A stretch of DNA of 64,000 nt. Source: Candidatus Woesebacteria bacterium GW2011_GWC1_42_9. GTDB lineage: Bacteria > Patescibacteriota > Microgenomatia > UBA8517. The stretch's first letter is position 1. Every line of letters starts with the position of its first letter. The stretch spans positions 103,028 to 167,027 of the forward strand of contig LCET01000001.1 in NCBI GenBank assembly GCA_000995185.1, read 5' to 3'. Both the position numbers and the translations under genes were made by a program. Shown here one piece after another: positions 10,832 to 46,397 of the stretch. The notes under the pieces were generated by a model, which saw nothing but the letters and a program-made list of their open reading frames with translations, was not told the origin of the DNA and did no database searches.

Positions 10832-12708
10832 GTTGCAAGCATTGTAAGTGTCGTGAAGGTAATTATCCTTCCATATTTATAGGATTCTGGATCGTATTTA
10901 AATTCTACATATTGGATATTCGGTTTTAGCTCGACGACTCTTAATCTATCTGGGCTTTCTTGAATTTCGACTTTTTCATCTCCATTTAAGTAGGCATTCC
11001 ATCCTGGGCTATATACTTCAGCGAGCAAAAGTACACTTTCGTGATAGTTGGAGGTGTCAATCTTGATGAAGTTCGGGGAGTACTCAGTTATGGGTGCACT
11101 TGCTCTTGGCTGGAGTGCTTCGTTAATGTATAGAAAGTAATCGTCAAATTTTTTTGCGAGAGTGAAACCTTTTCCAGTCAGCTGGTGAGGTGAAATGACA
11201 TATTTAACATTATATTTCCCCAAGGTTTTTGGATCTGGTTGAAGTTTTTGGAATTTATAGACGCCCGTAGGAGGGATGGGAAGTGAATAATAGTCCCAAT
11301 AGCTACCGACAAGTCCCCATGAGTGTTGATAGTAATTAATTTGCTGAACAGTGGTGTAGCCCTCTACGAGCTCCAAATCATGTTTAACTGCCAGTAATTG
11401 TGGTATGCATCTGTCAATGCAAAATACCCTATATCGAGATTTATCATTTTCGATAAAACTATAGAAGTCGCTTGATATTCCCTCCCTTTTCCCAGCAGGT
11501 TTAGCCAAAAAAGTCCAATAAAGTAGTAGTGATTCACAAACAGAGAGAATTATTAAAAGATATATAAACGGTTTTAGGTGCCTACTTCCGAGAAGTTTAT
11601 CTATTGAACTTCCGGCAAGAAAATGAGCGATAAGAACAATAATAAACCAGACTCTTGTCGGTACTCTCATAAGTTGATACCATTCCATCTGAATAAAGAT
11701 CGAGTAAAGTGGTGATGAATTTCCCAGAGCGACCAGGAGAAGGAAAGCTGTTGGTAGAATAATAAAAAGTTTAATTTTTTTATTAGCTAGGATAAAGCCG
11801 AGGATAGCCAGAGAGCTTACGCTAAGCCCTAAAGGGATCCATTTTTCTGTGTCTAATCCTTGTATCCCAGTGGTAGTTGTCCATGGGAGAAATACTGATT
11901 TAAGAAATTCTATTTTGGAATTCCAGATCGGATATATCTGAGGTTTTTCGGTCAGCAAATATCTAGTTGTAAGATTTTTCCAATCTAATTGTGGTAAAAG
12001 TGCGATAGCGGTTAGCCCAAATCCAATTATTGCACCAAAAAGATATGAAATGGCTCTGCGAATAGTATTTTTCTTGTGGATTATCGAATAAGACATAAAG
12101 AAATATGCTGAGGCAATTGCAGAAATCAAAAAAGTTACTGTATGAGTATAAAATAAACCAGCCATTGAAAGTGCAAGTAATATACTCCATCTCCATTCCT
12201 TTGTTTGAAAGAGTTTTAGAAGAGCTAACATCGTATATGGCACCCATGCCATTGCTTCAATTAGTCCGAAATGTCCTGCCTCAAAGTATCCGGCCATTTT
12301 GGGCGAGGTAATTGTAAAGATAGCCACGCATAAACTGGCAACTCGGGAAAATCTAAATCCTGCTTTAGCTGCCAAGTAGAATCCAATCCCTCCAAAAACG
12401 GTGTGAATAATGAAATTTATAAGAAAGGCAATTTCGATGGGCATAAATAGGAAGAGGATGTTTGGAGGATAAAAAAGTTGTGATTGGGGATCTGGCAGTA
12501 GCGGGGTACCTGAAAGGATTGTATTAAACCAAAGCGGGAAAGTATGATTTATCAAAATTTGTTTTTTTATAAATAAAATAATTGGCCAAAAAAATTCTTG
12601 AAGATCATTCCCTCGCTTTAGAAAATGGCTAGGATCTGCCCAAAGTGGAAGATTTGTAAATATGGAAGCCAGGATAATCGTCGAAATAATTTTTTTAGTA
12701 GTAAGCAT
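10795..12708 (-). CDS. YfhO-family membrane protein (GT-C).
   Basis: N-terminus FPLWFNTILSGTPLLPDPQSQLFYPPNILF and C-terminus VYSPGWNAYLNGDEKVEIQESPDRLRVVELKPNIQYVEFKYDP plus a terminal TM helix match YfhO architecture. Confidence 0.7.
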   Translation of the reverse strand: MLTTKKIISTIILASIFTNLPLWADPSHFLKRGNDLQEFFWPIILFIKKQILINHTFPLWFNTILSGTPLLPDPQSQLFYPPNILFLFMPIEIAFLINFIIHTVFGGIGFYLAAKAGFRFSRVASLCVAIFTITSPKMAGYFEAGHFGLIEAMAWVPYTMLALLKLFQTKEWRWSILLALSMAGLFYTHTVTFLISAIASAYFFMSYSIIHKKNTIRRAISYLFGAIIGFGLTAIALLPQLDWKNLTTRYLLTEKPQIYPIWNSKIEFLKSVFLPWTTTTGIQGLDTEKWIPLGLSVSSLAILGFILANKKIKLFIILPTAFLLLVALGNSSPLYSIFIQMEWYQLMRVPTRVWFIIVLIAHFLAGSSIDKLLGSRHLKPFIYLLIILSVCESLLLYWTFLAKPAGKREGISSDFYSFIENDKSRYRVFCIDRCIPQLLAVKHDLELVEGYTTVQQINYYQHSWGLVGSYWDYYSLPIPPTGVYKFQKLQPDPKTLGKYNVKYVISPHQLTGKGFTLAKKFDDYFLYINEALQPRASAPITEYSPNFIKIDTSNYHESVLLLAEVYSPGWNAYLNGDEKVEIQESPDRLRVVELKPNIQYVEFKYDPESYKYGRIITFTTLTMLATWFLYYLYQHYY

Positions 12709-12732
12709 TGTGTATAATCGACATGCAAAAAT

Positions 12733-15279
12733 ATGAAGAGTAGAGCAGTTCTCTTTCTGGCAATATTAGTTCCTATATTAATTGTTTTCAAGGCTTTTAT
12801 TTTTTCAGGAAATCGTTCTCTCGTTTATGGTGACGCTCCATACTTTACCAGTGAGGGATTAGAAGAATTATTATCTGAGCCATCGAGCTGGACGTATCGA
12901 GGTAATAATTTTGGGGAAGTTAATAACCTTCTTTGGCTCTCTCCATTAATGCTTTTATATGGGTTTTTACATTTGTTATTTGATTTCGGAAATGAGCTGA
13001 TTTTAATAGTCTTGTTTTATATTCCTTCGATACTTGCGGCTTTGGTGGGGACATTACTCTTTACTAGATTTTTAAAGCTATCGATAAAGGTACAATTTAT
13101 TACTTGTTTCTTTTACGTTTTTAATACTTTTTATTTATTAATAGTTGATGGTGGACAAGTGGGGATCGCATTGGCGTATGGATTGTTTCCTTTTGCGCTA
13201 CTTTATTTGGTTAAATATCTTAATAACCCTTCTCTGAATAGTTTTTTATTAGCCCTGGTATGGATTTCTTTGGTTTCTTTGGCAGACCCAAGATATGCAT
13301 TGATCGCGATTATTTTTAGTATCTTGTGGAATTTTTGGTCCTTCGATCCAAAAAAATTATTGTTATTACTCATAGCACTTTTTGGGATAAATATGTATTG
13401 GGTTTTTCCGTTAATAAAAACAGGGGGATTAACTACGGTATCTTCAGGAATGCAATTAATTAACTTCAAACATGGGCTCGCAGTCTTCCAGCCGCATTGG
13501 CCAGAAAATACTTTTGGAGTAATCACAGATCCGCCAATTTATTTTTATGGGATTTTCGGGCTGATTTTATTAGGTGTTTTATTAGGGAAGCATGGGCATA
13601 AACATAAAATAATATCATTATATTTGGTGTCCTTATTTTTGATTAAAGGTGGCTCGGGATTTTTAGGAAATTATTACAGTTGGATAATCAATAATTTCCC
13701 ATTTGCGGTATCCTTTAGGGATTCGACCAAATTTTCGGCTCCGCTGGTTTTATTTTCTGGAATATTAATTGGTTTATTAATTGAAAAAATTAATCGGAAA
13801 ATATTTTTGGCAGCCGTTTATCTTTATTTATTGTTTCTTCTGTCTCCCGCGATATGGGGATTAATGAATGGGGTATTGTCAGGTGGTTTAAATGACACTG
13901 ACATTAATAATGTTATTCGAGGCAAGACAGGGACCCGCTCAGTTTGGTTTCCAGAGAAATATCCTCTGGCTTACGAAACAGTTGATAACCAGGCGATAAA
14001 TGCAAAGGAGTTGGTTGATTTGCGTCCGATAGCTTCTATGAACGCAGGGACCTATGATAAATTTAATTTTTTACACAATGAAAAATCTTCAGAATGGTTG
14101 ACTCTTTTGGGGATTAATTATTTAGTTATTAATAAACCAGAAAATATTAATAATAACCAAAGAGAAGAGTGGAATAACCTCTTGGACTTAATTTCGTTGA
14201 ATAAAGAGTTTCGAGCAGTAAGCGGTGAAATTTATGAGATAACCTCTCCGTTGCCACGGCTATATGCCGCCGATCGTTTGTTAATAGTTGTTGGGGGAGA
14301 TGAAATATATAGTGAAGTTCCAAAATTGGCTGATCAGGCGGTAGTCTTTGTGGAAGACGGGAAATTTGATCCGAGATTACTCCAAGGGAAAGAGAAAGGA
14401 TCAGCGGTGCTAATTTTTAGTGGTAAAAAAGATATTGATTTAGAGATGAGCTTCTTACAGGAATATTTTATTTCCCCGAATAATCTGAAATATAACTGGG
14501 GGTATTATTCTTCGGATGATTATCTGCTTTGGAAATATCAACTTTTGATCAGAGATTTGAGTACCTTGGAATATGATTATGGGATTGGCACGCTTCTCTC
14601 GACTAACAAGAATGAAGAAATTTCCTATAACTTTACTGGACTTAATGATGGAGAATATGTACTTGCCATCAGGCAAATGGCAGTTAGTAATCCCGCAACT
14701 TCGGTGATAACCTTAGATCATCAACAGTGGGTGACCACTTTCCCTAAAAACAGTAAATTTGACTGGTTTACTGTGCCGGTGAAATTATCGGGTGAGGAGC
14801 ATCTATTCTCTCTGCAAAACGGAGAGGGCTCTCAGGTCTTTAACACCGTAGCTCTTATACCAAAGGAAGAATACGATAAAGCAATGACTCTGGCACAAAC
14901 ATATAAGGATCATTTTGGATCCATAGGTGGAAATGAATTAGCTTTAGAGGGAGTAAATAGTAATTGGCGCGAAATTCCATATGAAAAAATTAGTCCAACT
15001 TGGTATAAATTAGGGAATCCGAAAATTACAACCTGGATAGTTCTTACCGATAGTTTTCATCCAATGTGGCAGTTAAAAAGAGGACAGGTCGATCAGTTTG
15101 GTTCGTTTCCGGCTTATTCTGCGGTCAACGCCTTCTATATAGAGGATGATTGGAGAGATTTGGAAATCGTCTTTGGCGGTCAGAAGGAATTTCGCTGGGG
15201 CGTATATTATTCTGCCTTGACGATTTTGATGCTAGCCATTGTGTTTCTTTATCTCAAATCTCTAGACAGATATAATTGA
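12733..15279 (+). CDS. Large YfhO-like integral membrane protein (848 aa). It is the first gene of the 26-kb co-directional glycosylation array.
   Basis: Multi-TM N-terminal half. The C-terminus FHPMWQLKRGQVDQ...YIEDDWRDLEIVFGGQKEF plus a terminal TM helix is paralogous to the 6114 and 10795 C-termini. Confidence 0.55.
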   Translation: MKSRAVLFLAILVPILIVFKAFIFSGNRSLVYGDAPYFTSEGLEELLSEPSSWTYRGNNFGEVNNLLWLSPLMLLYGFLHLLFDFGNELILIVLFYIPSILAALVGTLLFTRFLKLSIKVQFITCFFYVFNTFYLLIVDGGQVGIALAYGLFPFALLYLVKYLNNPSLNSFLLALVWISLVSLADPRYALIAIIFSILWNFWSFDPKKLLLLLIALFGINMYWVFPLIKTGGLTTVSSGMQLINFKHGLAVFQPHWPENTFGVITDPPIYFYGIFGLILLGVLLGKHGHKHKIISLYLVSLFLIKGGSGFLGNYYSWIINNFPFAVSFRDSTKFSAPLVLFSGILIGLLIEKINRKIFLAAVYLYLLFLLSPAIWGLMNGVLSGGLNDTDINNVIRGKTGTRSVWFPEKYPLAYETVDNQAINAKELVDLRPIASMNAGTYDKFNFLHNEKSSEWLTLLGINYLVINKPENINNNQREEWNNLLDLISLNKEFRAVSGEIYEITSPLPRLYAADRLLIVVGGDEIYSEVPKLADQAVVFVEDGKFDPRLLQGKEKGSAVLIFSGKKDIDLEMSFLQEYFISPNNLKYNWGYYSSDDYLLWKYQLLIRDLSTLEYDYGIGTLLSTNKNEEISYNFTGLNDGEYVLAIRQMAVSNPATSVITLDHQQWVTTFPKNSKFDWFTVPVKLSGEEHLFSLQNGEGSQVFNTVALIPKEEYDKAMTLAQTYKDHFGSIGGNELALEGVNSNWREIPYEKISPTWYKLGNPKITTWIVLTDSFHPMWQLKRGQVDQFGSFPAYSAVNAFYIEDDWRDLEIVFGGQKEFRWGVYYSALTILMLAIVFLYLKSLDRYN

Positions 15280-32994: not shown

Positions 32995-34071
32995 ATGAGG
33001 ACGGTGATTGTCTATGATCGGGTAAATAAGTGGGGCGGGGCAGAGAGACTACTTTTGTCTTTAAATAAAATATTTCCCGAGGCTCCTCTTTATACTTCTG
33101 TTTATTCTCCAGACAGCGCTAAATGGGCAAAAGCTTTTCCAAAAGTATCCCCAAGCTTTCTGCAAAAAATTCCGGGAGCTTTAAATAATCACGATAAATT
33201 GGCACTACTTATGCCTTTGGCATTTGAATCGTTTGATTTTAGGGAGTTTGATTTAGTGATCAGTGTAACAAGTGAGGCCGCCAAGGGGATTATTACACGT
33301 CCTGAAACAAGGCATCTTTGTATTTGTCTGACGCCAACGAGGTACTTATGGAGCGGATATGATGACTATTTCAACACTTTAATGAAAAAAAGTGTCTCGA
33401 AAATTGCAGTAGATTACTTGAGGAATTGGGACAAAGTAGCTGCCCAGCGGCCAGACACGATGATCGCTATCTCCAAAGAAGTGCAAAAGAGGATAAAAAA
33501 ATACTATGGGAGAGAGTCGGAAGTTATTTATCCCCCGGCCGGCGAATTAAAAACTAATAATTTAAAATTAAAAATTAATACACATGATTATTTTTTGATT
33601 GTTTCCAGATTGGTTTCATATAAAAGGGTGGACTTGGCAATTAAGGTATTTAATGAATTGGATTTACCATTAGTGATCGTTGGTACTGGAAGTGAAGAGC
33701 GAAAATTAAGACAGATGTCAAAGAAGAATATTATTTTTACAGGGCGATTGACAGAGAGCGAGCTTGCCAATTACTATTATAGAAGCAAGGCTTTGGTATT
33801 TCCGCAAAAGGAGGACTTGGGGTTGGTCTCCCTGGAAGCACAAAATTTTGGTAAGCCGGTTATAGCTTTTTATGGCGGAGGGGCCAAGGAAACAGTGATA
33901 AATAATAAAACCGGTGTATTTTTTTACACGCAAAGTGTGAGTGAACTAAAGAATGCCCTGAAAAAGTTCTCGGGAATGAAGTTTAGCGAGAAAATTATCA
34001 AGAAAAACAGCGCCAGATTTTCTGAAAAGCGATTTAAGATAGAATTATTGAAGAGGATAAAAAATGTCTGA
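32995..34071 (+). CDS. GT4 family glycosyltransferase.
   Basis: LVFPQKEDLGLVSLEAQNFGKPVIAFYGGGAKETVINNKTGVFF. Confidence 0.75.
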   Translation: MRTVIVYDRVNKWGGAERLLLSLNKIFPEAPLYTSVYSPDSAKWAKAFPKVSPSFLQKIPGALNNHDKLALLMPLAFESFDFREFDLVISVTSEAAKGIITRPETRHLCICLTPTRYLWSGYDDYFNTLMKKSVSKIAVDYLRNWDKVAAQRPDTMIAISKEVQKRIKKYYGRESEVIYPPAGELKTNNLKLKINTHDYFLIVSRLVSYKRVDLAIKVFNELDLPLVIVGTGSEERKLRQMSKKNIIFTGRLTESELANYYYRSKALVFPQKEDLGLVSLEAQNFGKPVIAFYGGGAKETVINNKTGVFFYTQSVSELKNALKKFSGMKFSEKIIKKNSARFSEKRFKIELLKRIKNV

Positions 34072-35182
34072 AGAGAATTATAAAAAGCATTTATATGCGT
34101 TGATACTTGCCGGTGGTGGCGGCACAAGATTGTGGCCTCGTTCTCGGGAGAAAACTCCAAAGCAGTTTTTAAAATTATTTGGCGGGAAGACCCTCACACA
34201 GATTACTGCTAAAAGGTTTCGCAAGATATTACCTTGGCAGAGGATATATTGTGTAACTGTTTCGGATGCATATAAGCGCGAGCTTCTTAGGGAGTTACCT
34301 GGCTTTGTTCCTGGAAATATCATCGTTGAGCCAGCTCGGAGGGAAACCGGGCCTGCTCACGGAATTGGAGCAGTTTATATCCAAAATAGGGATCCTGATG
34401 CGGTGATAATTACCGAGTCGGTCGATAGGCTTGTGAAACCGGTCCCAACTTATTTAAAAACGCTAAAAGTAGCCGCGCAAGTGGCCTATGACCAAAAGGT
34501 GATGGTCGCCATCGGAGTTGAGCCCCGCTACCCGAACGTCGGCTATGGGCATATAAAGAAGGGGGCAGAAATTGATAAAGTTAACGGCGTTAAATTTTTT
34601 AAGCTTGAGAAATTTGTAGAAAAGCCTCCTCTGGCGTTGGCTAAGAAATATACTTCTTCTGGAAAGTATTTATGGAATGCAGGGCAATTTGTGTGGAGGG
34701 CGGACGTCCTTCTTGCTTCGATAAAGAAACATGAGCCAAAGATATCTTCAGCACTTGATAAAATTTCTGGGGCAATAGGGACTGAAAATGAAAAGGAAAT
34801 GGTTGCCCGCGTATATAAAAGTATGCCCAAAATATCGATTGATTACGCCGTGGCAGAGAGAGATCGCAATTTTGTACTCGTGTCAGCCGACTTTTTCTGG
34901 ACGGATATAGGTGACTGGAAAGAGGTATGGGAAAATCTAGCGAAGGATAATGTTGGGAACGTGATCATTGATGGTGATGAGCCTGGCGGAGAGGTGATAA
35001 ATATTGATACTTCTGATGCTTTAGTCCACAAAGACGGGCGCTTGATCGCCTTGGTTGACGTTGACAATATTATCATTGTAGATACCAAAGATGCCCTGTT
35101 GGTTTGCTCAAAGAGCATGGCCCAAAATGTAAAAAAGATTGTCCAGGAACTTAAAGAGCGAAAGGACACAAGTTTGTTATAA
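34064..35182 (+). CDS. Mannose-1-phosphate guanylyltransferase (NTP_transferase plus ManC C-terminal domain).
   Basis: N-terminal ALILAGGGGTRLWPRSREKTPKQF and overall ManC/CpsB-like layout. Confidence 0.75.
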   Translation: MSEENYKKHLYALILAGGGGTRLWPRSREKTPKQFLKLFGGKTLTQITAKRFRKILPWQRIYCVTVSDAYKRELLRELPGFVPGNIIVEPARRETGPAHGIGAVYIQNRDPDAVIITESVDRLVKPVPTYLKTLKVAAQVAYDQKVMVAIGVEPRYPNVGYGHIKKGAEIDKVNGVKFFKLEKFVEKPPLALAKKYTSSGKYLWNAGQFVWRADVLLASIKKHEPKISSALDKISGAIGTENEKEMVARVYKSMPKISIDYAVAERDRNFVLVSADFFWTDIGDWKEVWENLAKDNVGNVIIDGDEPGGEVINIDTSDALVHKDGRLIALVDVDNIIIVDTKDALLVCSKSMAQNVKKIVQELKERKDTSLL

Positions 35183-35201
35183 TATCCCGCTGCCCAAGAA
35201 G

Positions 35202-35843
35202 ATGTTATATTTTTTTGTCAAAAGGACGATAGATATATTTGGATCCCTGTTTTTGTTGGCGATCTTTTTTCCTTTGTTGATTGCGGTTGCCATCATCATT
35301 AAATTAACCTCAAATGGTCCCTTATTTGCAGATACGCCAAAACGCGTGGGGAAAAGAGGAACACCTTTTTTTGCATATAAATTTCGTTCGATGATCGTTA
35401 ACGCCCACAAACTCCTAAGGACCGACCCGAAGTATAAAAGTGCTTTAAAAGAGCTTGAACAAGGGGGAAATTATAAAATAAAAAGGGATCCGCGGGTCAC
35501 TCCAATCGGTAGAATAATCAGAAAACACTCTATCGATGAAATACCCCAGCTTTTTAACGTCCTAAAGGGAGAGATGAGTATTGTCGGCCCGAGACCTTAT
35601 TATCAGGAAGAATTAGTTAAGCAGCAAGAAAAATTTCCGGGGACCGAGGGCTATGTCAAAGAAATGCTCAAAGTTAAGCCTGGGATAACCGGCTATTGGC
35701 AAGTGACGGGGAGAAGCGATGTCGCCTTTGATAAAAGGATCGAAATGGACGCATACTATGCCAAAAGGCGATCAGTTTTACTGGATATTTTGATATTATT
35801 AAAGACGCCATGGGTGATGATCTCGGGGAAAGGAGCTGCCTAA
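35202..35843 (+). CDS. Initiating sugar-1-phosphate polyprenyl-phosphate transferase (Bac_transf/WbaP C-terminal domain type).
   Basis: KRTIDIFGSL...PLFADTPKRVGKRGTPFFAYKFRSM...DPRVTPIGRIIRKHSIDEIPQLFNVLKGEMSIVGPRP. The ORF track start is 35139; the Met at 35202 follows the upstream stop. Confidence 0.85.
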   Translation: MLYFFVKRTIDIFGSLFLLAIFFPLLIAVAIIIKLTSNGPLFADTPKRVGKRGTPFFAYKFRSMIVNAHKLLRTDPKYKSALKELEQGGNYKIKRDPRVTPIGRIIRKHSIDEIPQLFNVLKGEMSIVGPRPYYQEELVKQQEKFPGTEGYVKEMLKVKPGITGYWQVTGRSDVAFDKRIEMDAYYAKRRSVLLDILILLKTPWVMISGKGAA

Positions 35844-35852
35844 TAGTGTAAT

Positions 35853-37823
35853 ATGAATGACATGCCTCAAATTAATTTTGAAGAGTCCCTAGTCCAAATT
35901 AAGCCGGATGAGAAACCTATAAAAAGATTTAGGTTTTGGAAGTTCCATCGCCCTGGAAAAAGGATTTTGATCGGTTTATCGCTTGCCTTTGTCGTTTTAT
36001 TTGTTCTTATCCTATTTCCCGCTCTTCGGGTTTATCGAAGCGGCATGGTCTTGGCAGAGAGCGCCAGGCGTGCAAAAGACTCCGTGAACAGCCAGGATAT
36101 CACGGTTGTAAGAGGCGAGCTTAATAATTTTAAGGGTGATTTGGAGAGTTTTCAGGGCGCCTACAGATGGTTTGGCTGGGTGCAATACATCCCCTGGGCG
36201 GGGAGATACTGGAAAGACGGTAATGCAGGGATAAAGGCAGGACTTCATGGATTAGCCGCGGCAGATAAAGTGATTGAAACACTGTCCCCGTATGCGGATA
36301 TTATCGGCTTTGCCGGACCAGAGAGCGATACTGCTCAAAGCGGGGAAGATACCGCAAATGACCGGATTGAGTTTTTGGTACAGTCGGTTGAGCAAATAAC
36401 TCCTCAGATTGATGGAATTTCCGCCGAAGCCCAAGCCGCCGTCGCAGAATTATCTAAAATCGATCCAAACCGGTACCCAAAGGAATTTAGGGGAATTCCC
36501 GTCCGCGAAAAACTAAAAAACGGGATAAACCTGGCGATAGTTGGCGCCGGCTTTGTTTCAAAGTCAAAACCTTTGATGGAGGCCGCCCCATATATGCTTG
36601 GGATGGACGAAGAGCGCACGTATTTGGTTCTTTTCCAAAATGACAAAGAGCTAAGACCGACTGGCGGATTTATCACCGCCTACTCGATCATGACAGTAAA
36701 AAATGGGAAAGTAAGCCAGGTGAATTCGAGCGATATATATCATTTGGATAATGCCTACCGGCCAGTCGTTCCTGCTCCGGACCCGATCATTAATTACATC
36801 AAGGGAGTTTATGCGGCTTTGGATAAGTTTCGCTTAAGAGACATGAATTGGTCGCCTGATTTCCGAGAAAGCATGGACCTGTTTATGAACGAGGCCGAGA
36901 AGGCCGGGATTGAGGATATCGATGGTGTGATCGCGGTTGATACTCATGTTGTAGTTAATCTTCTTAAGGCGATCGGGCAGATTGGTGTGCCAGGATTTGG
37001 CAATTTTAGCGCTGAAAATGATGAGCGCTGTAATTGCCCGCAGGTAGTTTATGAGCTGGAAAGCTTTGCAGACGTGGAGGGGCCGGTTGTTTGGAGTGAA
37101 AATGAGCCGGAGAAGATCGTCTTTGCTCCCCCAAATTATGATAATCGCAAAAAAATTGTCGGTCCTTTGATGAATTCACTTTTGGGAAATGCCTTGGGAC
37201 AACCAAAGGAAAAGCTACCGGATCTTTTTGAAGCCGCGTGGGATTCGATCAATGAAAAGCATGTCCTGATTTACATGTTTGATGAAAATGCCCAAAAGGG
37301 AGTGGAGAGCTTTGAAATCGCCGGTAGAATTAAAGATATTGAGGGCGACTATCTACATATAAATGATGCTAATTTAGGGGGCAGGAAGTCAAACATGTAT
37401 GTCACCCAAGAAGTATCCCAGGACGTAGATATTGCCCGAGACGGCACAGTTACAAAAACACTAAGCATTACCTATAAAAACCCTCAGGACTACGATGGCT
37501 GGCTTAATTCGGTCCTCCCTAATTGGACGAGAATTTATGTGCCGAGAGGGAGTGAACTCGTTTCCGTTGACGGATTTGACGATGAAGGGGAGACCTATGA
37601 GGAGCTTGGCAAGACTGTCTTTTCCGGAGGATTTGAGCTTCGTCCTCAAGGCATAAAGCAGATAATCATTGTCTATAAATTGCCTTTTAAAGTAAGCGAT
37701 GATTACTGGGTTTACTTGCAAAAACAGCCCGGGACGGATATGCCGCTCTATGTCGTTAATGTTGGTGGGAAAACTGAAGAGCTATTTCTTAAAACTGACC
37801 AACACCTGAAGTTTTCGATCTAA
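35853..37823 (+). CDS. N-terminally TM-anchored large extracytoplasmic protein, probably DUF4012 family.
   Basis: A single N-terminal TM helix. LRPTGGFITAYS motif. Positioned next to the priming sugar transferase, as in other polysaccharide loci. Confidence 0.5.
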   Translation: MNDMPQINFEESLVQIKPDEKPIKRFRFWKFHRPGKRILIGLSLAFVVLFVLILFPALRVYRSGMVLAESARRAKDSVNSQDITVVRGELNNFKGDLESFQGAYRWFGWVQYIPWAGRYWKDGNAGIKAGLHGLAAADKVIETLSPYADIIGFAGPESDTAQSGEDTANDRIEFLVQSVEQITPQIDGISAEAQAAVAELSKIDPNRYPKEFRGIPVREKLKNGINLAIVGAGFVSKSKPLMEAAPYMLGMDEERTYLVLFQNDKELRPTGGFITAYSIMTVKNGKVSQVNSSDIYHLDNAYRPVVPAPDPIINYIKGVYAALDKFRLRDMNWSPDFRESMDLFMNEAEKAGIEDIDGVIAVDTHVVVNLLKAIGQIGVPGFGNFSAENDERCNCPQVVYELESFADVEGPVVWSENEPEKIVFAPPNYDNRKKIVGPLMNSLLGNALGQPKEKLPDLFEAAWDSINEKHVLIYMFDENAQKGVESFEIAGRIKDIEGDYLHINDANLGGRKSNMYVTQEVSQDVDIARDGTVTKTLSITYKNPQDYDGWLNSVLPNWTRIYVPRGSELVSVDGFDDEGETYEELGKTVFSGGFELRPQGIKQIIIVYKLPFKVSDDYWVYLQKQPGTDMPLYVVNVGGKTEELFLKTDQHLKFSI

Positions 37824-38744: not shown

Positions 38745-39287
38745 GTGGGAAGGACATATGTTTCAGATGGGGTTGTGTTGGCTTCGCGTGATTACAGTGA
38801 GGCGGATAAAATATTGGTAGTTCTCTCGAAAGATTTTGGCAGAGTGTCGCTTATTGCCAAAGGCGTTAAAAAGCTCAAAAGCCGTAAGCGCGGGCACGTC
38901 GAAATCTTTAATCATATAAAGTTCCAAGCTGCTCGGGGGAAATCTTTGGATATTATTACCGAGGCAGAAATTATCAATGCTTTTTCAAGGGTCAGGAAAA
39001 ACTTAGTAAAGACTTCTGTCGCCTATTATTTTGCGGAGGTGATCGGGCGTACTACCCGCGACCACGAAAGAAATGAAGTGCTGTACGGACACCTATTAGA
39101 TAGCCTCACGAAGCTCCAAAAAAGCGAGAATTTGAAAGAATTAAGGCGTGATTTTGCGGTAAGGGCTTTGGAGATCCTAGGCTTCTGGCCAAAAAACAAA
39201 AAAATCGCCGATCCGGACAGATTTATCGAGGAAATCCTCGAGCGTGAGCTAGCGAGCATTAGAGTGGGCAAAAGGCTTCAAGGGTAG
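38745..39287 (+). CDS. recO: DNA repair protein RecO (short form).
   Basis: GTG start. N-terminal OB-fold region DGVVLASRDYSEADKILVVLSKDFGRVSLIAKGVKKLKS matches RecO_N. Confidence 0.65.
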   Translation: MGRTYVSDGVVLASRDYSEADKILVVLSKDFGRVSLIAKGVKKLKSRKRGHVEIFNHIKFQAARGKSLDIITEAEIINAFSRVRKNLVKTSVAYYFAEVIGRTTRDHERNEVLYGHLLDSLTKLQKSENLKELRRDFAVRALEILGFWPKNKKIADPDRFIEEILERELASIRVGKRLQG

Positions 39288-39311: not shown

Positions 39312-40409
39312 ATGAATACTAAATCTTTAAATACAAACTTACATAGAGCAAATAAAGCAAAGAAAGATGAGTTTTATACTCAGCTTATTGATATTGAAAA
39401 AGAACTGAAGCACTACAAAGACCAGTTTCGAGGCAAGGTGGTTTATTGCAATTGTGATGATCCATTTGAAAGTAATTTTTTCAAATATTTTGCCGCTAAT
39501 TTCAACGCCCTAAAACTTAAAAAGTTAATCACCACCAGTTATACAAAGTCGCCAGTTGCCGGAGGACAGTTGCCACTCTTTGAAGTCAAGGGCTTAAAAC
39601 CGAAAGGCAAAGAGCCGTTTATGATTGTACTCAATGAAGTGACAGATACCGATGCAGACGGCGCGGTGGGGCTTACTGATGTGAAGTGGCTCTTGAAAAA
39701 TGATGCCAATATCGCTACCTCACTCAAGGGTAACGGAGATTTTCGCAGCGAGGAGTGCATCAAACTTCTAAAAGAAGCAGATATTGTGGTAACCAACCCG
39801 CCATTTTCACTCTTTCGCGAATATGTGGCGCAGTTAGTCGAGTATAAGAAGAAATTTATAATTCTTGGCGACCAAAACGCAATTACATACAAAGAATTTT
39901 TTAAACTTATAAAAGAAAACAAGCTATGGCTTGGTTATGATAACGGTGGCACAAAATGGTTTCAAGTCCCAATGGATTACGATATACCAACAGAGTCAAG
40001 AAAGAAAATTGAGAATGGAGTGCAGTATTTTAGTATGGGGCGGATTATGTGGTTTACAAATTTAGACACCACAAAAAGACACGAGAAGCTGACTTTATAT
40101 AAAAAATATAGTCCGAAAGAATATCCAAAATATGACAATCATGATGCAATTGAAGTCTCTAGGGTTTTAGAAATTCCAATGGACTACAAGGGATTCATGG
40201 GTGTGCCAATTACATTTGTTGATAAATATAATCCTGATCAATTTGAGATCATTGGATTGCTTGCTGATAAGCGGGAAAAATCAGATGCACTTATACAAGG
40301 TATCCCTACTTATCTTGATGAACAGCATAAAAAATATGTAGGTGCTATTGTTAACGGAAAAGCAACTTATGCACGGATTATTATTAAAAATAAGAAAGTA
40401 AAAAAATAA
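39312..40409 (+). CDS. N6-adenine DNA methyltransferase, EcoRI-methylase-like family.
   Basis: KDEFYTQLIDIEKEL..Y...FRGKVVYCNCDDPFESNFFKYF and motif IV VVTNPPFSLFREY (the NPPF catalytic tetrapeptide). Confidence 0.65.
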   Translation: MNTKSLNTNLHRANKAKKDEFYTQLIDIEKELKHYKDQFRGKVVYCNCDDPFESNFFKYFAANFNALKLKKLITTSYTKSPVAGGQLPLFEVKGLKPKGKEPFMIVLNEVTDTDADGAVGLTDVKWLLKNDANIATSLKGNGDFRSEECIKLLKEADIVVTNPPFSLFREYVAQLVEYKKKFIILGDQNAITYKEFFKLIKENKLWLGYDNGGTKWFQVPMDYDIPTESRKKIENGVQYFSMGRIMWFTNLDTTKRHEKLTLYKKYSPKEYPKYDNHDAIEVSRVLEIPMDYKGFMGVPITFVDKYNPDQFEIIGLLADKREKSDALIQGIPTYLDEQHKKYVGAIVNGKATYARIIIKNKKVKK

Positions 40410-40410
40410 T

Positions 40411-41517
40411 ATGAAAATTGATCTAAACAAAATACCAATTCACGAAGTGATAGTCGGCTACAGAGATAGCGCCGAGGAGGGCGTGGTGGCTTATGGTGGC
40501 AAACTTGATATTCGTCCAAAATATCAGCGTGAGTTTGTATACAAGGAAAAGCAACGCAACGCAGTGATAGAGACTATAAATAACAATTTTCCTCTTAACG
40601 TGATGTACTGGATGATTAGAGAAGATGGCGGCTATGAAGTACTGGACGGCCAACAGCGCACCATCAGCATTGGGCAGTATGTTACGGGTGATTTTTCGCT
40701 GAACGACCGCTTTTTTCATAATCTGACCAAAGAGGAGCAGGATAAAATTTTGGATTATGAGCTTATGATTTACTTCTGCGAGGGAACGGACAAAGAACGG
40801 TTGGATTGGTTTAGAATTATCAACATCGCCGGAGAAAAATTGACCGATCAAGAAATACGCAACGCAGTTTATACCGGCCCGTGGCTTTCTGACGCGAAAA
40901 TCAAATTTAGTAAATCAAATTGTGCGGCGTATCTCTTGGCAAACGACGGCGGACAATTAGTTAGTGGTTCGCCAATTCGCCAAGAGTATTTGGAAACAGT
41001 ACTTTCGTGGATTAACGATGGCAAGATAGAAGATTATATGGCCAAACATCAGCATGATGAAAACGCCGATGAGCTATGGCAGTATTTTCAAGATGTGATA
41101 GTCTGGGTACGAATAATTTTTACGAATTATCGCCGAGAGATGAGCAATGTGCCGTGGGGAGTTTTGTATAACCAATTCAAAGATAAAAAATTTGATTCAA
41201 AAAAACTGGAAAAAGAAATAACCGAGTTGATGCAAGACGAAGATGTGACCAAAAAGTCCGGTATTTACGAATATGTTTTAACTAGAAATGAAAAATTTTT
41301 AAACATCCGCGCTTTCACCGACAAAATGAAACGAGAAGCGTATGAGAGACAAAAAGGCGTTTGTCCGCACTGCAAAGGCGAGAACAAGAAAAAGAAATGG
41401 GAAATTAAGGAAATGGAAGCCGACCACATCAAGCCATGGCATGAAGGCGGAAAAACGACAGTAGAGAATTGCCAGATGTTGTGCCAAGACGATAATAGAA
41501 AAAAATCAGGAAAATAA
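40411..41517 (+). CDS. DUF262 (ParB/Srx-like, GmrS-type) domain protein with a C-terminal HNH nuclease.
   Basis: VLDGQQRTISIGQY (the DGQQR motif of DUF262). C-terminus CPHCKG...ADHIKPWHEGGKTTVENCQMLCQDDNRKK (HNH with CxxC...C..C Zn ligands). A 1-nt gap to the upstream MTase suggests translational coupling. Confidence 0.7.
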   Translation: MKIDLNKIPIHEVIVGYRDSAEEGVVAYGGKLDIRPKYQREFVYKEKQRNAVIETINNNFPLNVMYWMIREDGGYEVLDGQQRTISIGQYVTGDFSLNDRFFHNLTKEEQDKILDYELMIYFCEGTDKERLDWFRIINIAGEKLTDQEIRNAVYTGPWLSDAKIKFSKSNCAAYLLANDGGQLVSGSPIRQEYLETVLSWINDGKIEDYMAKHQHDENADELWQYFQDVIVWVRIIFTNYRREMSNVPWGVLYNQFKDKKFDSKKLEKEITELMQDEDVTKKSGIYEYVLTRNEKFLNIRAFTDKMKREAYERQKGVCPHCKGENKKKKWEIKEMEADHIKPWHEGGKTTVENCQMLCQDDNRKKSGK

Positions 41518-41551: not shown

Positions 41552-43018
41552 TTGCTGAGAATAAATAGTATGAAAATTAGTCAAATCTACAAATTAAATA
41601 AAACTCAGCATGAATTAGATTTTGTTGACATAGATCCCTCAAAAGACAAAGCAGTTTTTCTTGACCCCTTCTTTATTTCTACTAGACCTCAACCGTGGTG
41701 TATAGATGTAAGTAGAACAATAAAAAGTTTTTTTCAACACGCGATTGACCTTATTAAATCAGATGAGGTTGATAAAGCTCGTGCTCTTTTTGTTCATTTA
41801 AACGAACCGAATGAAATATGTTTAGGTTTATCGAGATCCAAACCTCAAGGTAGGGGTGCCGGCAATGATGATTCAAGACGCATATATGAAAGTATTTTGG
41901 AGAGTAAGGCAGTTCAAACTGGGTTAGTAGAAGATTTGGAAGATACGGCTATTTTTATTGATCGGATAGCTAGAGATAAGGTATCTGATATGACAACTAA
42001 CATAATTAGGAAACATCTTGTTGGTTACACTAAATCACAGTGCGAATTGTGGAATATTCCTTTGACCAGCGATGTACCATCTGGATTTTTTTGGGATCCA
42101 GCAAATAAAAGATGGGAAATTGTGCACACCGACAGATTAGTCGTAAGAAACAAACCCTTATTGCTAGTTCCAAAAATATCAGTTTCTTTCCATAAAGAAT
42201 ATATTGATCAAAAATATTATCAGCACTTCGCCTTAAATTATTTACAGGGTGAGCATTTAGCAAAAGATAGCAGTTTGGTGCGTGAAAGAACATTAAAGGA
42301 TGGTTCAAAACATAGATATGTAACAAAAAAAGATATAAAAGAGAAGGAAGCTCCTTTTTCTAAAGAATTTTTGCGTGAGTTTACAAAAAGTCATCCTGAA
42401 GTTTTTAAAAATTTCAGAAGTAGTAAAGCTCAATCCGTTCAACCAATCGGAAATAAAGATCTGGAAGATATTGATGTTGGCGCTTTAGTCGATTACTTGA
42501 TTAACTTACTTAATTCCTTGACTGCGGGTGGGGACAACGCAAGCGCATATCATAAATTGATCATCGGAGTACTAGAATTTATTTTCTACCCATCATTAAA
42601 TAATCCAGTCAAAGAGAAAGAAATAAACGACGGCAGAAAGCGAATTGACATAACTTTCGACAATTCAGCAAATGATGGATTTTTTTACACTCTCCACAAT
42701 CTCCATCAAATTACTTCAAGATATATTTTTGTTGAGTGCAAAAATTATTCGGAAGATCCAAAAAATCCAGAAATTGATCAGTTGGCCGGTAGATTTTCGG
42801 TTAATACAAGTAAATTCGGCTTTTTGGTTTGCAGATTGATAAGTGATAAAAATTTATTTCTGAAAAGATGCCAAGATATGTGGAAACAGAAAAATGAGTT
42901 GATTATCCCGTTGACCGATCTGGAAATCATCGCTATTTTAAAAAATATAAAATCAGGAGTGATACGAACAGAAGAACAATTACTCAATGATTTAAGAAGG
43001 AAGATAATTTTGTCGTAG
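41552..43018 (+). CDS. Putative restriction endonuclease. It has a C-terminal Mrr-cat-like PD-(D/E)xK domain and a large uncharacterised N-terminal domain.
   Basis: C-terminal GRKRIDITFDN...(27 aa)...IFVECKNY matches the Mrr_cat pattern G.IDh...(E/Q)xKxY. Confidence 0.5.
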   Translation: MLRINSMKISQIYKLNKTQHELDFVDIDPSKDKAVFLDPFFISTRPQPWCIDVSRTIKSFFQHAIDLIKSDEVDKARALFVHLNEPNEICLGLSRSKPQGRGAGNDDSRRIYESILESKAVQTGLVEDLEDTAIFIDRIARDKVSDMTTNIIRKHLVGYTKSQCELWNIPLTSDVPSGFFWDPANKRWEIVHTDRLVVRNKPLLLVPKISVSFHKEYIDQKYYQHFALNYLQGEHLAKDSSLVRERTLKDGSKHRYVTKKDIKEKEAPFSKEFLREFTKSHPEVFKNFRSSKAQSVQPIGNKDLEDIDVGALVDYLINLLNSLTAGGDNASAYHKLIIGVLEFIFYPSLNNPVKEKEINDGRKRIDITFDNSANDGFFYTLHNLHQITSRYIFVECKNYSEDPKNPEIDQLAGRFSVNTSKFGFLVCRLISDKNLFLKRCQDMWKQKNELIIPLTDLEIIAILKNIKSGVIRTEEQLLNDLRRKIILS

Positions 43019-43175: not shown

Positions 43176-43718
43176 ATGCCTTTTTCTACAGAAATTATTG
43201 GTCTTTTGCAGTATTTAGGTGTTAGTGCGGATAAAATAGCCCCATTTTTAATTTTTGGTTTTCTTTTGAATCTCTCCTTCTCAAAGAGACTCGGAATATT
43301 TTCAAAAGAGATCAACAAAATTGCCAACGCAATAGTTGAAATTCAAACTGTTTTAAGAAACAATCTTAAAGTTACGCTGCAGCAAAATATCAATCAATAT
43401 GGAATATCTGGAAGTCCAATAGTTCTTAAGAGTGAATTTCGGTCATTTATTACTAAGCCAAAACTTGACCAGCAGGTAGATGAAAAAATTGACGAACTTA
43501 TAGAATGGTTGAAAAAGCAAAACCCAAAAACTGGAATTGATGCCCAAAATAAAATTTCAGAGCTGGTGATATCACCAAAGATCAACGAATATTTAGACCT
43601 CACAAAATACAAACAATACCTATATACAAAAGGTAAAACGTCAAGAGATGCTTATGGGATTTTGGCCGTCTACCTCTTCGAGATATTGATTCCTATATTG
43701 TTTCCCTCAGGCAAATAA
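43176..43718 (+). CDS. Hypothetical protein (180 aa).
   Basis: ORF only. Hydrophobic N-terminal and C-terminal segments. No motif recognised. Confidence 0.4.
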   Translation: MPFSTEIIGLLQYLGVSADKIAPFLIFGFLLNLSFSKRLGIFSKEINKIANAIVEIQTVLRNNLKVTLQQNINQYGISGSPIVLKSEFRSFITKPKLDQQVDEKIDELIEWLKKQNPKTGIDAQNKISELVISPKINEYLDLTKYKQYLYTKGKTSRDAYGILAVYLFEILIPILFPSGK

Positions 43719-43742
43719 CAAATAATATCAAACTGCTCAAAT

Positions 43743-43832
43743 TTGACCCGTTTTGACACATTAATTTAGGGTTGACAACATAATCATGTTGTCCATAGTA
43801 GTTAGCAAGCAGTCTATTTGAGTGCTTGCTAA
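43743..43832 (+). promoter_or_regulatory. Promoter/operator region. It has three TTGAC(A/C) boxes, a palindrome GACAACAT-aatc-ATGTTGTC overlapping the TTGACA/CATAAT elements, and a second perfect 10-bp inverted repeat TTAGCAAGCA-(11 nt)-TGCTTGCTAA ending 1 nt before the SD.
   Basis: Read directly: TTGACC 43743, TTGACA 43753, TTGACA 43772. First inverted repeat (IR) 43773-43792. Second IR 43802-43832. SD GGAGGTGA at 43834. Confidence 0.5.
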
Positions 43833-43847
43833 TTGGAGGTGATTAAA

Positions 43848-44102
43848 ATGGTAGATTTTAATAATTTAAAAATAGAGCCACATTTTAAGCTAAATTTTGG
43901 TAAGTCCGGGAAAAACGGAAATGGTGGAGATGGGGGATCAATATTTATTTTCACTGAAAAATTAGCAGGGGATGGGAAATTCCTTGCTCATGGAGGTAGG
44001 GGAAAACATGGAGGAAAAGGAGGGAATATAAAAATTATTGCAAAAAATAATGATTTCAAGGGCGAAGTTTCAGTAAAAGGAGGTGATTCCTATGGAAAGT
44101 AA
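43848..44102 (+). CDS. Small glycine/lysine-rich protein (84 aa).
   Basis: ATG 43848 with SD GGAGGTGA 6 nt upstream. The in-frame TTG at 43833 is the ORF-track start. Sequence GKSGKNGNGGDGGSIFIF...GGRGKHGGKGGNIKII...KGGDSYGK. Confidence 0.5.
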   Translation: MVDFNNLKIEPHFKLNFGKSGKNGNGGDGGSIFIFTEKLAGDGKFLAHGGRGKHGGKGGNIKIIAKNNDFKGEVSVKGGDSYGK

Positions 44103-44382
44103 GCAACATAAACAAATCGCAAACAAAATTGCCAAAATTAAGGGCTCCGAATACCATTCGGATAAAGGGATAGATATTCGTACCAGAACTCAAGCAATAG
44201 AAGTAGAGGTTGATTCAAAAGCCTTTGGACACGCAAAACAACAATTGGCTGGATCGACACGAGCACCTTATATTGCCGTGCCTAACGAACTCGTCAAAGA
44301 TGCTCTAGTGTCAACACAAAATACTAGATTTGGAGTTATGAATGAGAGAGCAAAAATTTATAAATCAGGTCGGCGAAGATAG
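44092..44382 (+). CDS. Small protein (96 aa), possibly a minimal PD-(D/E)xK (YraN-like) fold. It is translationally coupled to the upstream gene.
   Basis: ATG 44092 with an identical SD GGAGGTGA 8 nt upstream, lying inside the 3' end of the previous gene. KGIDIRTRTQAIEVEVDSKA resembles a D...ExDxK core. The ORF-track start is GTG 44083. Confidence 0.45.
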   Translation: MESKQHKQIANKIAKIKGSEYHSDKGIDIRTRTQAIEVEVDSKAFGHAKQQLAGSTRAPYIAVPNELVKDALVSTQNTRFGVMNERAKIYKSGRRR

Positions 44383-44458: not shown

Positions 44459-45754
44459 TTGGGAGGAATGGTTAACTTTTTTGAAAAACAGTTTGATAAT
44501 TTAGCAAAAAAGATTCAACTGCGTTGGAAAAATCTTATTTTAGGGTTAAAATCTTATTTCAAAAAATTGATTTTTCCTCTGTATCTTTTCCCGATTAAGC
44601 TTGTTACTTATACCGCTTATTACTTGGTCAAGTTTTTAATCAAGTTTATTTTTGCTTTCATCAGCCTTATTTTTGAAACAATTATTTTTCCCTTCAAAAG
44701 TCTTAAAAACTTTTTAAAGTCAATTTTTATTCTTGGTATTTTTATATACCTTTTAGCCTCTGTTTTTGTAATTGCTGATTATTTAACAAACCAGTACGGC
44801 TATATCGGCAAATTCCTTTGTTCTTTTGGAGTGAGAGATAAAATGGTAAATTCTGTTGTTCGTGTCGTCGGCGGATATTCTGAAGGCACAGGGTTTTTCA
44901 TAAGCCCCGACCAAGTGATTACCAACTTCCATGTTATTGCTGATGAGCCAAGCCCTAAAATTATTTTTCCCGATGGAAACTTTGTAACTCCGGTAAAAAT
45001 TCTTGGCAATAAAGATGTTGACTTGGCAGTCTTGTTTACAGAAGCAAAGTATCCGGATCTGGTTTTGCCTTTGCCGGATAGCATAGGCTTTAAGGAGGAC
45101 GAACCTCTTATTGCTACCGGCTACGCTTTGGGAACTGACTTAACTGGTAAGGCAACGAGCCTTAGGGGAAGGTTTATTGATTTTAGGAAATCCAAGCGAA
45201 TGCCCATTGGCTACATCCAAACTGACATCAGTTTGGTCAAGGGCATGAGCGGCGGCCCGCTGGTCGATCAATGCGGGAGTGTAGTTGGGATAAATACCAT
45301 TAGTCTTGCCGGATTATCCTTGTTTATCAACGCAGACTGGGCAAAAACTATGGTGCCGGATTTTACCGACCAGAATATTACTAAAATCGAGGTTGACCCT
45401 TCTCTCTCTCCGGAGGAAGCCGTGAGAGCTTTTTATACCTATCTTAAAGCCCGCCGGATGGAAGACGGCTTTAACTTATTGAGCGAAGAATATCTTAAAA
45501 AGACAAACTTTGAGGAATGGACCAACCGCTTCACTGATATTTTGGATGTTGATGTTATCAAATCCGAGAAATTTGAAAATACCAACGATATTGCTTTTGT
45601 AAAATTCTCAACTAAAAATTGGGTGGACGGGGAAGCAGAAGTACATTTTTACGAGGGTACTTGGCAAACGGTCAAAGAAGACGGGGTGTACAAAATGTTC
45701 AAAAGCAAAATTGTGGAAGTTGAAAACCCAGATTGGGATTGGTTCTATGAATAA
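44459..45754 (+). CDS. Membrane-anchored trypsin-like serine protease (S1/Trypsin_2) with an uncharacterised C-terminal domain.
   Basis: 3-4 N-terminal TM helices. Catalytic triad contexts TNFHVIAD (His), DVDLAVLF (Asp) and KGMSGGPLVD (Ser). Confidence 0.7.
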   Translation: MGGMVNFFEKQFDNLAKKIQLRWKNLILGLKSYFKKLIFPLYLFPIKLVTYTAYYLVKFLIKFIFAFISLIFETIIFPFKSLKNFLKSIFILGIFIYLLASVFVIADYLTNQYGYIGKFLCSFGVRDKMVNSVVRVVGGYSEGTGFFISPDQVITNFHVIADEPSPKIIFPDGNFVTPVKILGNKDVDLAVLFTEAKYPDLVLPLPDSIGFKEDEPLIATGYALGTDLTGKATSLRGRFIDFRKSKRMPIGYIQTDISLVKGMSGGPLVDQCGSVVGINTISLAGLSLFINADWAKTMVPDFTDQNITKIEVDPSLSPEEAVRAFYTYLKARRMEDGFNLLSEEYLKKTNFEEWTNRFTDILDVDVIKSEKFENTNDIAFVKFSTKNWVDGEAEVHFYEGTWQTVKEDGVYKMFKSKIVEVENPDWDWFYE

Positions 45755-46397
45755 GCTCTCGCCATCAGACTTCGCCTACCTCTATGAGGAGTGTAAGCTT
45801 TGCTACTACCTCAAAGTCAAGCACAAGATTTCCCAGCCTAGCATGCCCATGCCTGGCGTCTTTAGTGCGATAAATACCCGCCTCCAAACTCCGCTTGTCG
45901 GCAAAAATTTGCAAGTCATATCCAAAAGACTCCCCGAGGGTGAGGTTATAAAGCAAGAAGGATGGGTAGAGTCTAAAACTGTCCCTGGGACAAATGTTTA
46001 CCTCAAGGGTAAGTATGATTTGTTAGTTAAAAACATGGACGAGACTTATACCCTGGTCGACTTAAAGATCACCCAGCCGGATGAAGGCAAGATTGAAAAG
46101 TACCAGACCCAATTGTCGGCTTATAAATTTGCCTTGGAAAATCCCAAAACTGGCAAGCCGACCCAGATCGTGAGGACCGGATTACTTCTTTTTTATCCCG
46201 ACACAGTGACTTTTAAAGCGGGGAATGCGATATTTAAATTCCCGCCGACTTGGATGGAAGTGCCGATCGACGAAAGAGTTTTCTTTGGGTTTATGAAGGA
46301 AGTTAACGAGCTTTTAAATGGACCCACTCCAAAAGAAAGCAAAACTTGCAAATGGTGCCAGTACCGGCACATTGGGGATAAGTTAGCTCACTCGTGA
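45747..46397 (+). CDS. Cas4/RecB-like PD-(D/E)xK nuclease with four Cys that could form an Fe-S cluster (standalone, no CRISPR nearby).
   Basis: N-terminal ECKLCYY. GKYDLLV (motif I Asp). LVDLKI (DxK). QTQLSAYKFAL (QxxxY). C-terminal TCKWCQY. The ORF-track start is 45711; the Met at 45747 overlaps the protease stop by 8 nt. Confidence 0.6.
   Translation: MNKLSPSDFAYLYEECKLCYYLKVKHKISQPSMPMPGVFSAINTRLQTPLVGKNLQVISKRLPEGEVIKQEGWVESKTVPGTNVYLKGKYDLLVKNMDETYTLVDLKITQPDEGKIEKYQTQLSAYKFALENPKTGKPTQIVRTGLLLFYPDTVTFKAGNAIFKFPPTWMEVPIDERVFFGFMKEVNELLNGPTPKESKTCKWCQYRHIGDKLAHS

Follow-up and report, generated by a model that had tools for sequence, protein, structure and literature searches.

The general design in which an N-terminal specificity or sensor module is joined to a C-terminal PD-(D/E)xK nuclease is already known, and defense nucleases can lie next to restriction-modification (R-M) genes: E. 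coli K-12 carries the type IV gene mrr beside hsdR, and the guard-type nuclease PrrC resides in the EcoprrI locus. A further source of comparison is the set of 145 phage defense candidates (PDCs) recovered through guilt-by-embedding in BREX, DISARM and type I R-M loci (Payne et al., bioRxiv 10.1101/2024.01.29.577857), among them PDC-M36, a three-gene cassette (FAM_01399>>FAM_00303>>FAM_00303); later papers treat the PDCs as unvalidated or assayed other candidates. Here we consider a gene at positions 41570..43018 (+ strand) of a 64,000-nucleotide window from Candidatus Woesebacteria bacterium GW2011_GWC1_42_9 (contig LCET01000001.1), whose 482-residue product belongs, as judged from its close homologs, to Pfam family DUF8370 (PF28123), which is catalogued but uncharacterized. 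The reading that we favor, and to which we assign about an even chance, is that DUF8370 is an autonomous, horizontally mobile, single-polypeptide nuclease of restriction type, with a self-contained anti-phage or anti-plasmid role and no part in the adjoining R-M system. What is new is the fold of its N-terminal domain, which has no solved relative, the independent life of that domain on plasmids, and the recurrent embedding of the family in type I, II and III R-M loci.

The window protein matches both models of PDC-M36A, each with partial coverage (PDLC04597 on residues 2-223, E=3.3e-37; PDLC04598 on residues 251-454, E=1.2e-13), and its close relatives lie within type I and III R-M operons, just the kind of embedding through which the candidates themselves were discovered. 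Because these matches are only partial, we place the protein, on sequence grounds, in a sister family of PDC-M36A, which is itself a candidate only. Whereas PDC-M36 is a three-gene cassette, the DUF8370 gene stands alone: There is no second DUF8370 copy in any of 79 homologous loci, and no other PDC-M36 component appears among the seven neighboring window proteins or among the 25 most frequent of 195 families for 142 neighbors of homologs. Literature searches on PDC-M36, PF28123 and DUF8370 found no characterization.

The coding sequence lies in an uninterrupted open reading frame (ORF; 41552..43018, + strand) for which a mechanical choice of start codon (TTG, 41552) gives the 488 amino acids reported in the initial annotation. 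Since all 34 of 34 aligned homologs begin at the position equivalent to an internal M-K-I-S, translation almost certainly starts at ATG 41570, and the length must be corrected to 482 amino acids plus the stop codon; the two motifs quoted in that annotation are present in the translation, GRKRIDITFDN as residues 355-365 (nt 42632-42664) and IFVECKNY with its ECK at residues 389-391 (nt 42734-42742). A word-indexed search returned at least 2,576 homologs, and the 120 that were listed are all about 480 residues long and unnamed or 'hypothetical'. When 1.84 billion cluster representatives were searched exhaustively with a profile, 3,712 matched at E<=1e-3, nearly all again of about 480 residues, and 830 of them reached E<=1e-30. 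Because thousands of homologs of such uniform length exist, the frame can be taken as a real gene and not a chance ORF. The 3,712 clusters (at 50% identity) span at least 10 phyla, including the genome-reduced Patescibacteria, as well as plasmids and some phages. Family membership of the window protein was assigned through close homologs and not by a direct match to the hidden Markov model: All 120 listed homologs (50-90% identity, full length) carry a precomputed PF28123 tag. It is also matched by phrog_27295 over residues 1-462 (E=5.7e-98), and since both entries are annotated as 'unknown function', membership gives no mechanism. The closest relatives on contigs long enough for their binning to be trusted fall in Patescibacteria/candidate phyla radiation (CPR) bins. 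Unlike these, the closest homolog in the genome collection (91% identity; CAYLUK010000083.1, 1,776 nt, our locus L016) is binned as 'uncultured Gammaproteobacteria', an assignment that we regard as doubtful.

The C-terminal domain (residues 301-482; 42470..43015, + strand) has the alpha-beta-beta-beta-alpha-beta core fold of the PD-(D/E)xK superfamily. Core strands two and three carry the putative catalytic residues: D360 within GRKRIDITFDN (42647..42649; strand 358-365) and E389-C-K391, forming the ExK (42734..42742; strand 385-391). Across 111 representatives at 29-49% identity, these residues are conserved in 95% (D360), 98% (E389) and 96% (K391). The domain thus combines the PD-(D/E)xK fold with a D...ExK site that is both intact and conserved and for which metal-dependent cleavage is predicted, and on both fold and conservation the nuclease proposed in the initial annotation was borne out. 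Its assignment as Mrr-cat-like was not: Mrr_cat (PF04471) gave no Pfam-A match at E<=0.01 for the whole protein, nor at E<=10 when the last 182 residues were searched alone. Along almost all of its length the domain resembles the non-specific cleavage domain of FokI, as used by type IIS endonucleases, although sequence identity to the FokI and N.BspD6I cleavage domains is only 10-12% and the FokI recognition domains are unrelated to the N-terminal region of DUF8370. Among single-protein sensor-nuclease defense systems, Shedu (SduA) has no match to the window protein at the sequence level or in PADLOC, and the N-terminal domains differ; Shedu sensor regions vary, whereas the N-terminal domain of DUF8370 is highly conserved.

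It is in the N-terminal domain (residues 1-300; 41570..42469, + strand), a mixed alpha/beta and basic (pI 8.7) region whose fold matches no solved structure, that conservation of the whole protein peaks. The invariant positions are acidic or polar: D136 and S139 (100%), D140 and E79 (99%), and D26 (98%). Three of them make up the DKVSD motif (41975..41989, + strand; D136, S139 and D140 at 99-100%), and D26 (41645-41647) and E79 (41804-41806) complete the same acidic set. A glycine-rich, flexible loop, RSKPQGRGAG (residues 89-98; 41834..41863), contains the invariant G94 and G96 and has low predicted local distance difference test (pLDDT) scores in both structure models. The initial annotation had recognized no motif in this region, in agreement with which we found no sequence match in a local copy of Pfam-A, in NCBIfam or in PDB.

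A conserved module in its own right, this 300-residue region is also found by itself. Unannotated stand-alone proteins of about 300 amino acids are common cargo on small and large plasmids, with 92 PLSDB records, of which 48 are from Staphylococcus; examples are WP_000176962.1 on the Staphylococcus aureus Mu50 plasmid VRSAp (locus L098, 3983-4894) and further proteins on loci L099, L100 and L013. The acidic and polar residues stay invariant in plasmid proteins of Staphylococcus, Acinetobacter and Rhodococcus at 21-24% identity. Several of the stand-alone genes lie near methyltransferase (MTase) or R-M genes, for example an MvaI/BcnI restriction endonuclease (REase) plus C5 MTase on the Acinetobacter plasmid and an 891-residue MTase on the Rhodococcus plasmid. 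A single representative of 1,144 amino acids (P0196) is a fusion of an almost complete DUF8370 protein (residues 4-461) with a PNP_UDP_1 domain of the 'PN-superfamily' (residues ~790-943), which matches CBASS effector and PDC-M60C models, with a stretch without assignment between them (residues ~460-790); as one sequence, it is possibly an artefact of assembly or gene calling. Tentatively, and with doubt prevailing, the module could be a previously unrecognized autonomous fold with its own putative pocket (D26, E79, the G94-x-G96 loop, D136-x-x-S-D140, W182 and P201), forming a new class of immune sensor or a new enzyme, which would function by itself on firmicute, actinobacterial and proteobacterial plasmids and, in chromosomal defense loci within type I, II and III R-M systems, be joined to effectors that can be exchanged (a FokI-like nuclease, or a nuclease with a PNP domain).

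To examine the surroundings of the family, the 79 homologous loci were screened with phmmer over +-10 kb, a procedure less sensitive than Pfam-based screening. Within these limits an MTase was detectable in only 12 of 79 loci and a recombinase in 24. No MTase family is among the frequent +-1 neighbors, and no consistently linked cognate methyltransferase, as would accompany a type IIS enzyme, was found. Close relatives sit inside type I and type III R-M operons, separated from the adjacent genes by gaps of 25-36 nt or, in one arrangement, overlapping mod by 23 nt and preceding res by 2 nt. The gene is without an obligate partner and is patchily distributed in variable regions, often beside or inside R-M and other defense loci or near recombinases. 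Directly after one type I R-M operon that harbors a homolog (locus L103) comes a Virulence_RhuM-domain gene (11829-12785); a RhuM-domain candidate, PDC-S05, has been reported to be protective (PMC12881386).

If the favored reading is correct, the basic N-terminal domain would act as a targeting or control module that recognizes some feature of foreign DNA that is absent from the host, most likely a modification or a structure, in the manner of type IV enzymes. Recognition may proceed through the invariant acidic putative pocket, the glycine-rich loop and conserved tryptophans, after which the domain would position or release the cleavage domain, which probably dimerizes, like that of FokI, to cut both strands. 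Because most loci are without a cognate methyltransferase, self-DNA would have to be spared either by target specificity or by latency of the nuclease. The former, type IV logic, with specificity for a feature absent from the host, appears the most likely because the N-terminal domain is basic, the cleavage module is FokI-like and non-specific, and the genes are located beside R-M systems, as with mrr and hsdR; under the latter (an abortive-infection or guard logic, compare PrrC), the enzyme would be silent until an infection cue. A location beside a type II pair here, and inside type I and III operons elsewhere, fits a complementary second line of defense and not a subunit.

Several observations weigh against this reading. 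The literature contains no experimental evidence of defense for any family member, the PDCs being candidates only. About 60% of the loci have neither an R-M gene nor a recombinase nearby in the limited phmmer screen, and some homologs have purely housekeeping flanks. Fold comparison found the N-terminal domain unlike any known modified-base reader or DNA-recognition fold; a 'sensor/targeting' role is assigned to it solely by analogy, the invariant acidic residues might just as well belong to a second catalytic site, and the plasmid-borne stand-alone forms function with no nuclease attached, something that targeting alone would not easily account for. A separate type IV enzyme had been one suggestion of the initial annotation, and the nuclease does lack a cognate MTase at most loci; what is missing, in contrast to Mrr, MspJI and AspBHI, is a Pfam Mrr_cat match and a recognizable reader, since the domain resembles neither SRA, PUA/EVE/YTH nor the winged helix of Mrr-N.

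The other suggestion, that the gene encodes a third subunit or accessory of the adjoining system, now seems very improbable. In the window, an EcoRI-family N6-adenine MTase (39312-40409, + strand; Pfam E=1.8e-143; PADLOC MTase_II E=8.7e-132) is followed after 1 nt by a DUF262/GmrSD_N-HNH endonuclease (40411-41517, + strand), which matches the PADLOC REase_II model PDLC03418 over its full length (E=2.8e-137), and the DUF8370 gene begins on the same strand 52 nt after the HNH gene, an arrangement that, like the tight packing of close relatives inside type I and III operons, would suit a subunit. However, neither an EcoRI-type MTase nor a DUF262-HNH homolog occurs in any of the 79 loci, the R-M systems beside close relatives are of three unrelated types, and the pair (39312..41517) alone matches complete type II models and is, as predicted from these matches, a complete two-gene R-M system. 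G+C content at third codon positions (GC3) also differs: the DUF8370 gene has 0.28, the HNH gene 0.45, the MTase 0.34 and the flanks 0.40-0.55. Because of this difference the gene looks to have been acquired separately from the pair. It has, moreover, a promoter-like site of its own, a sigma-70-like consensus match (TTGCCA-16-GATAAT; 41469..41496, + strand) within the 3' end of the HNH gene, 74 nt 5' of ATG 41570.

Less easily set aside, though still unlikely, is an abortive-infection nuclease whose N-terminal domain senses a phage protein, a nucleotide signal or R-M inactivation (guarding in the style of PrrC) and frees a non-specific nuclease, otherwise autoinhibited, to destroy the DNA of host and phage alike. 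No signal-generating partner such as a cyclase is conserved nearby, the N-terminal domain has no SAVED/CARF-like fold, and physical guarding of one enzyme is at odds with adjoining R-M systems that differ in type (I, II, III) and are lacking at most loci. Somewhat less probable again is a dual enzyme, in which D26, E79, D136, S139 and D140 would form a catalyst (e.g., a metal-dependent phosphoesterase, glycosylase or nucleotide-modifying enzyme), the nuclease would be a second activity, and the short plasmid forms would be the stand-alone enzyme. That the strictest conservation falls on acidic and polar residues that are invariant in the plasmid forms as well is a typical active-site pattern, and this explanation is kept alive because nuclease-less forms exist; yet the domain has no structural or sequence similarity to known enzyme folds, and conserved acidic residues can also build a ligand- or metal-mediated binding site. 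We find improbable a non-defensive role in mobile elements, whether as a maintenance, recombination or addiction nuclease of plasmids, integrative and conjugative elements or prophages, with the N-terminal domain serving plasmid biology (e.g., DNA processing or anti-restriction). The plasmid records and the recombinase-linked loci would suit it, but a small Bacillus plasmid encodes a separate RepL-like protein for replication, the domain is basic, unlike an acidic DNA mimic, the neighborhoods showed no conserved antitoxin-like partner, and many chromosomal loci have no mobile-element genes nearby.

Some further features of the window deserve mention. The EcoRI-family MTase is partnered with a DUF262/GmrSD_N plus HNH endonuclease, not with an EcoRI-like PD-(D/E)xK enzyme. 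The housekeeping flanks comprise RecO, a class II aminoacyl-tRNA synthetase, MraZ and MraW, and the RecO frame (38745-39287) is only 180 residues long. It covers RecO_N and, of the 157-position RecO_C profile, just the first 66 positions, and it stops 24 nt short of the R-M pair. Insertion of the R-M/defense block may have cut it short, or it may be a short RecO of CPR type. Downstream of the DUF8370 gene, three small ORFs (43176-44382; 180, 89 and 99 residues), whose GC3, like that of the gene itself, lies within 0.24-0.31, have no Pfam, NCBIfam or PADLOC match and recur beside no homolog elsewhere; they appear to belong with it to a single acquired block. Beyond them (44459-46397), a 431-residue trypsin-like serine protease, with weak PADLOC matches to RT-protease and LmuA protease regions, overlaps a 228-residue PDDEXK_1 nuclease by 44 nt; their GC3 differs (0.41 vs. 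0.55), and they could form a two-gene defense-like module or a housekeeping pair. On the other side, a glycosyltransferase/sugar-transferase cluster (32995-37823) includes a 656-residue DUF4012 protein (35853-37823), encoded upstream of an S-adenosylmethionine-dependent MTase that weakly matches PADLOC 'mad2'; it probably serves cell-envelope biosynthesis, unrelated to DUF8370.

If DUF8370 proves instead to be a type IV enzyme of the ordinary sort, the modest gain would be one more reader domain. If the prediction is true as a whole, DUF8370 would be a very widespread single-gene defense nuclease absent from catalogs of validated systems, and its N-terminal domain, having no solved relative, could reveal a new way of recognizing foreign DNA or infection; the combination of this domain with a FokI-like, non-specific cleavage domain might also interest biotechnology. 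The stand-alone N-terminal-domain proteins carried by clinically relevant plasmids, such as VRSAp of S. aureus Mu50, would then gain their first functional lead.
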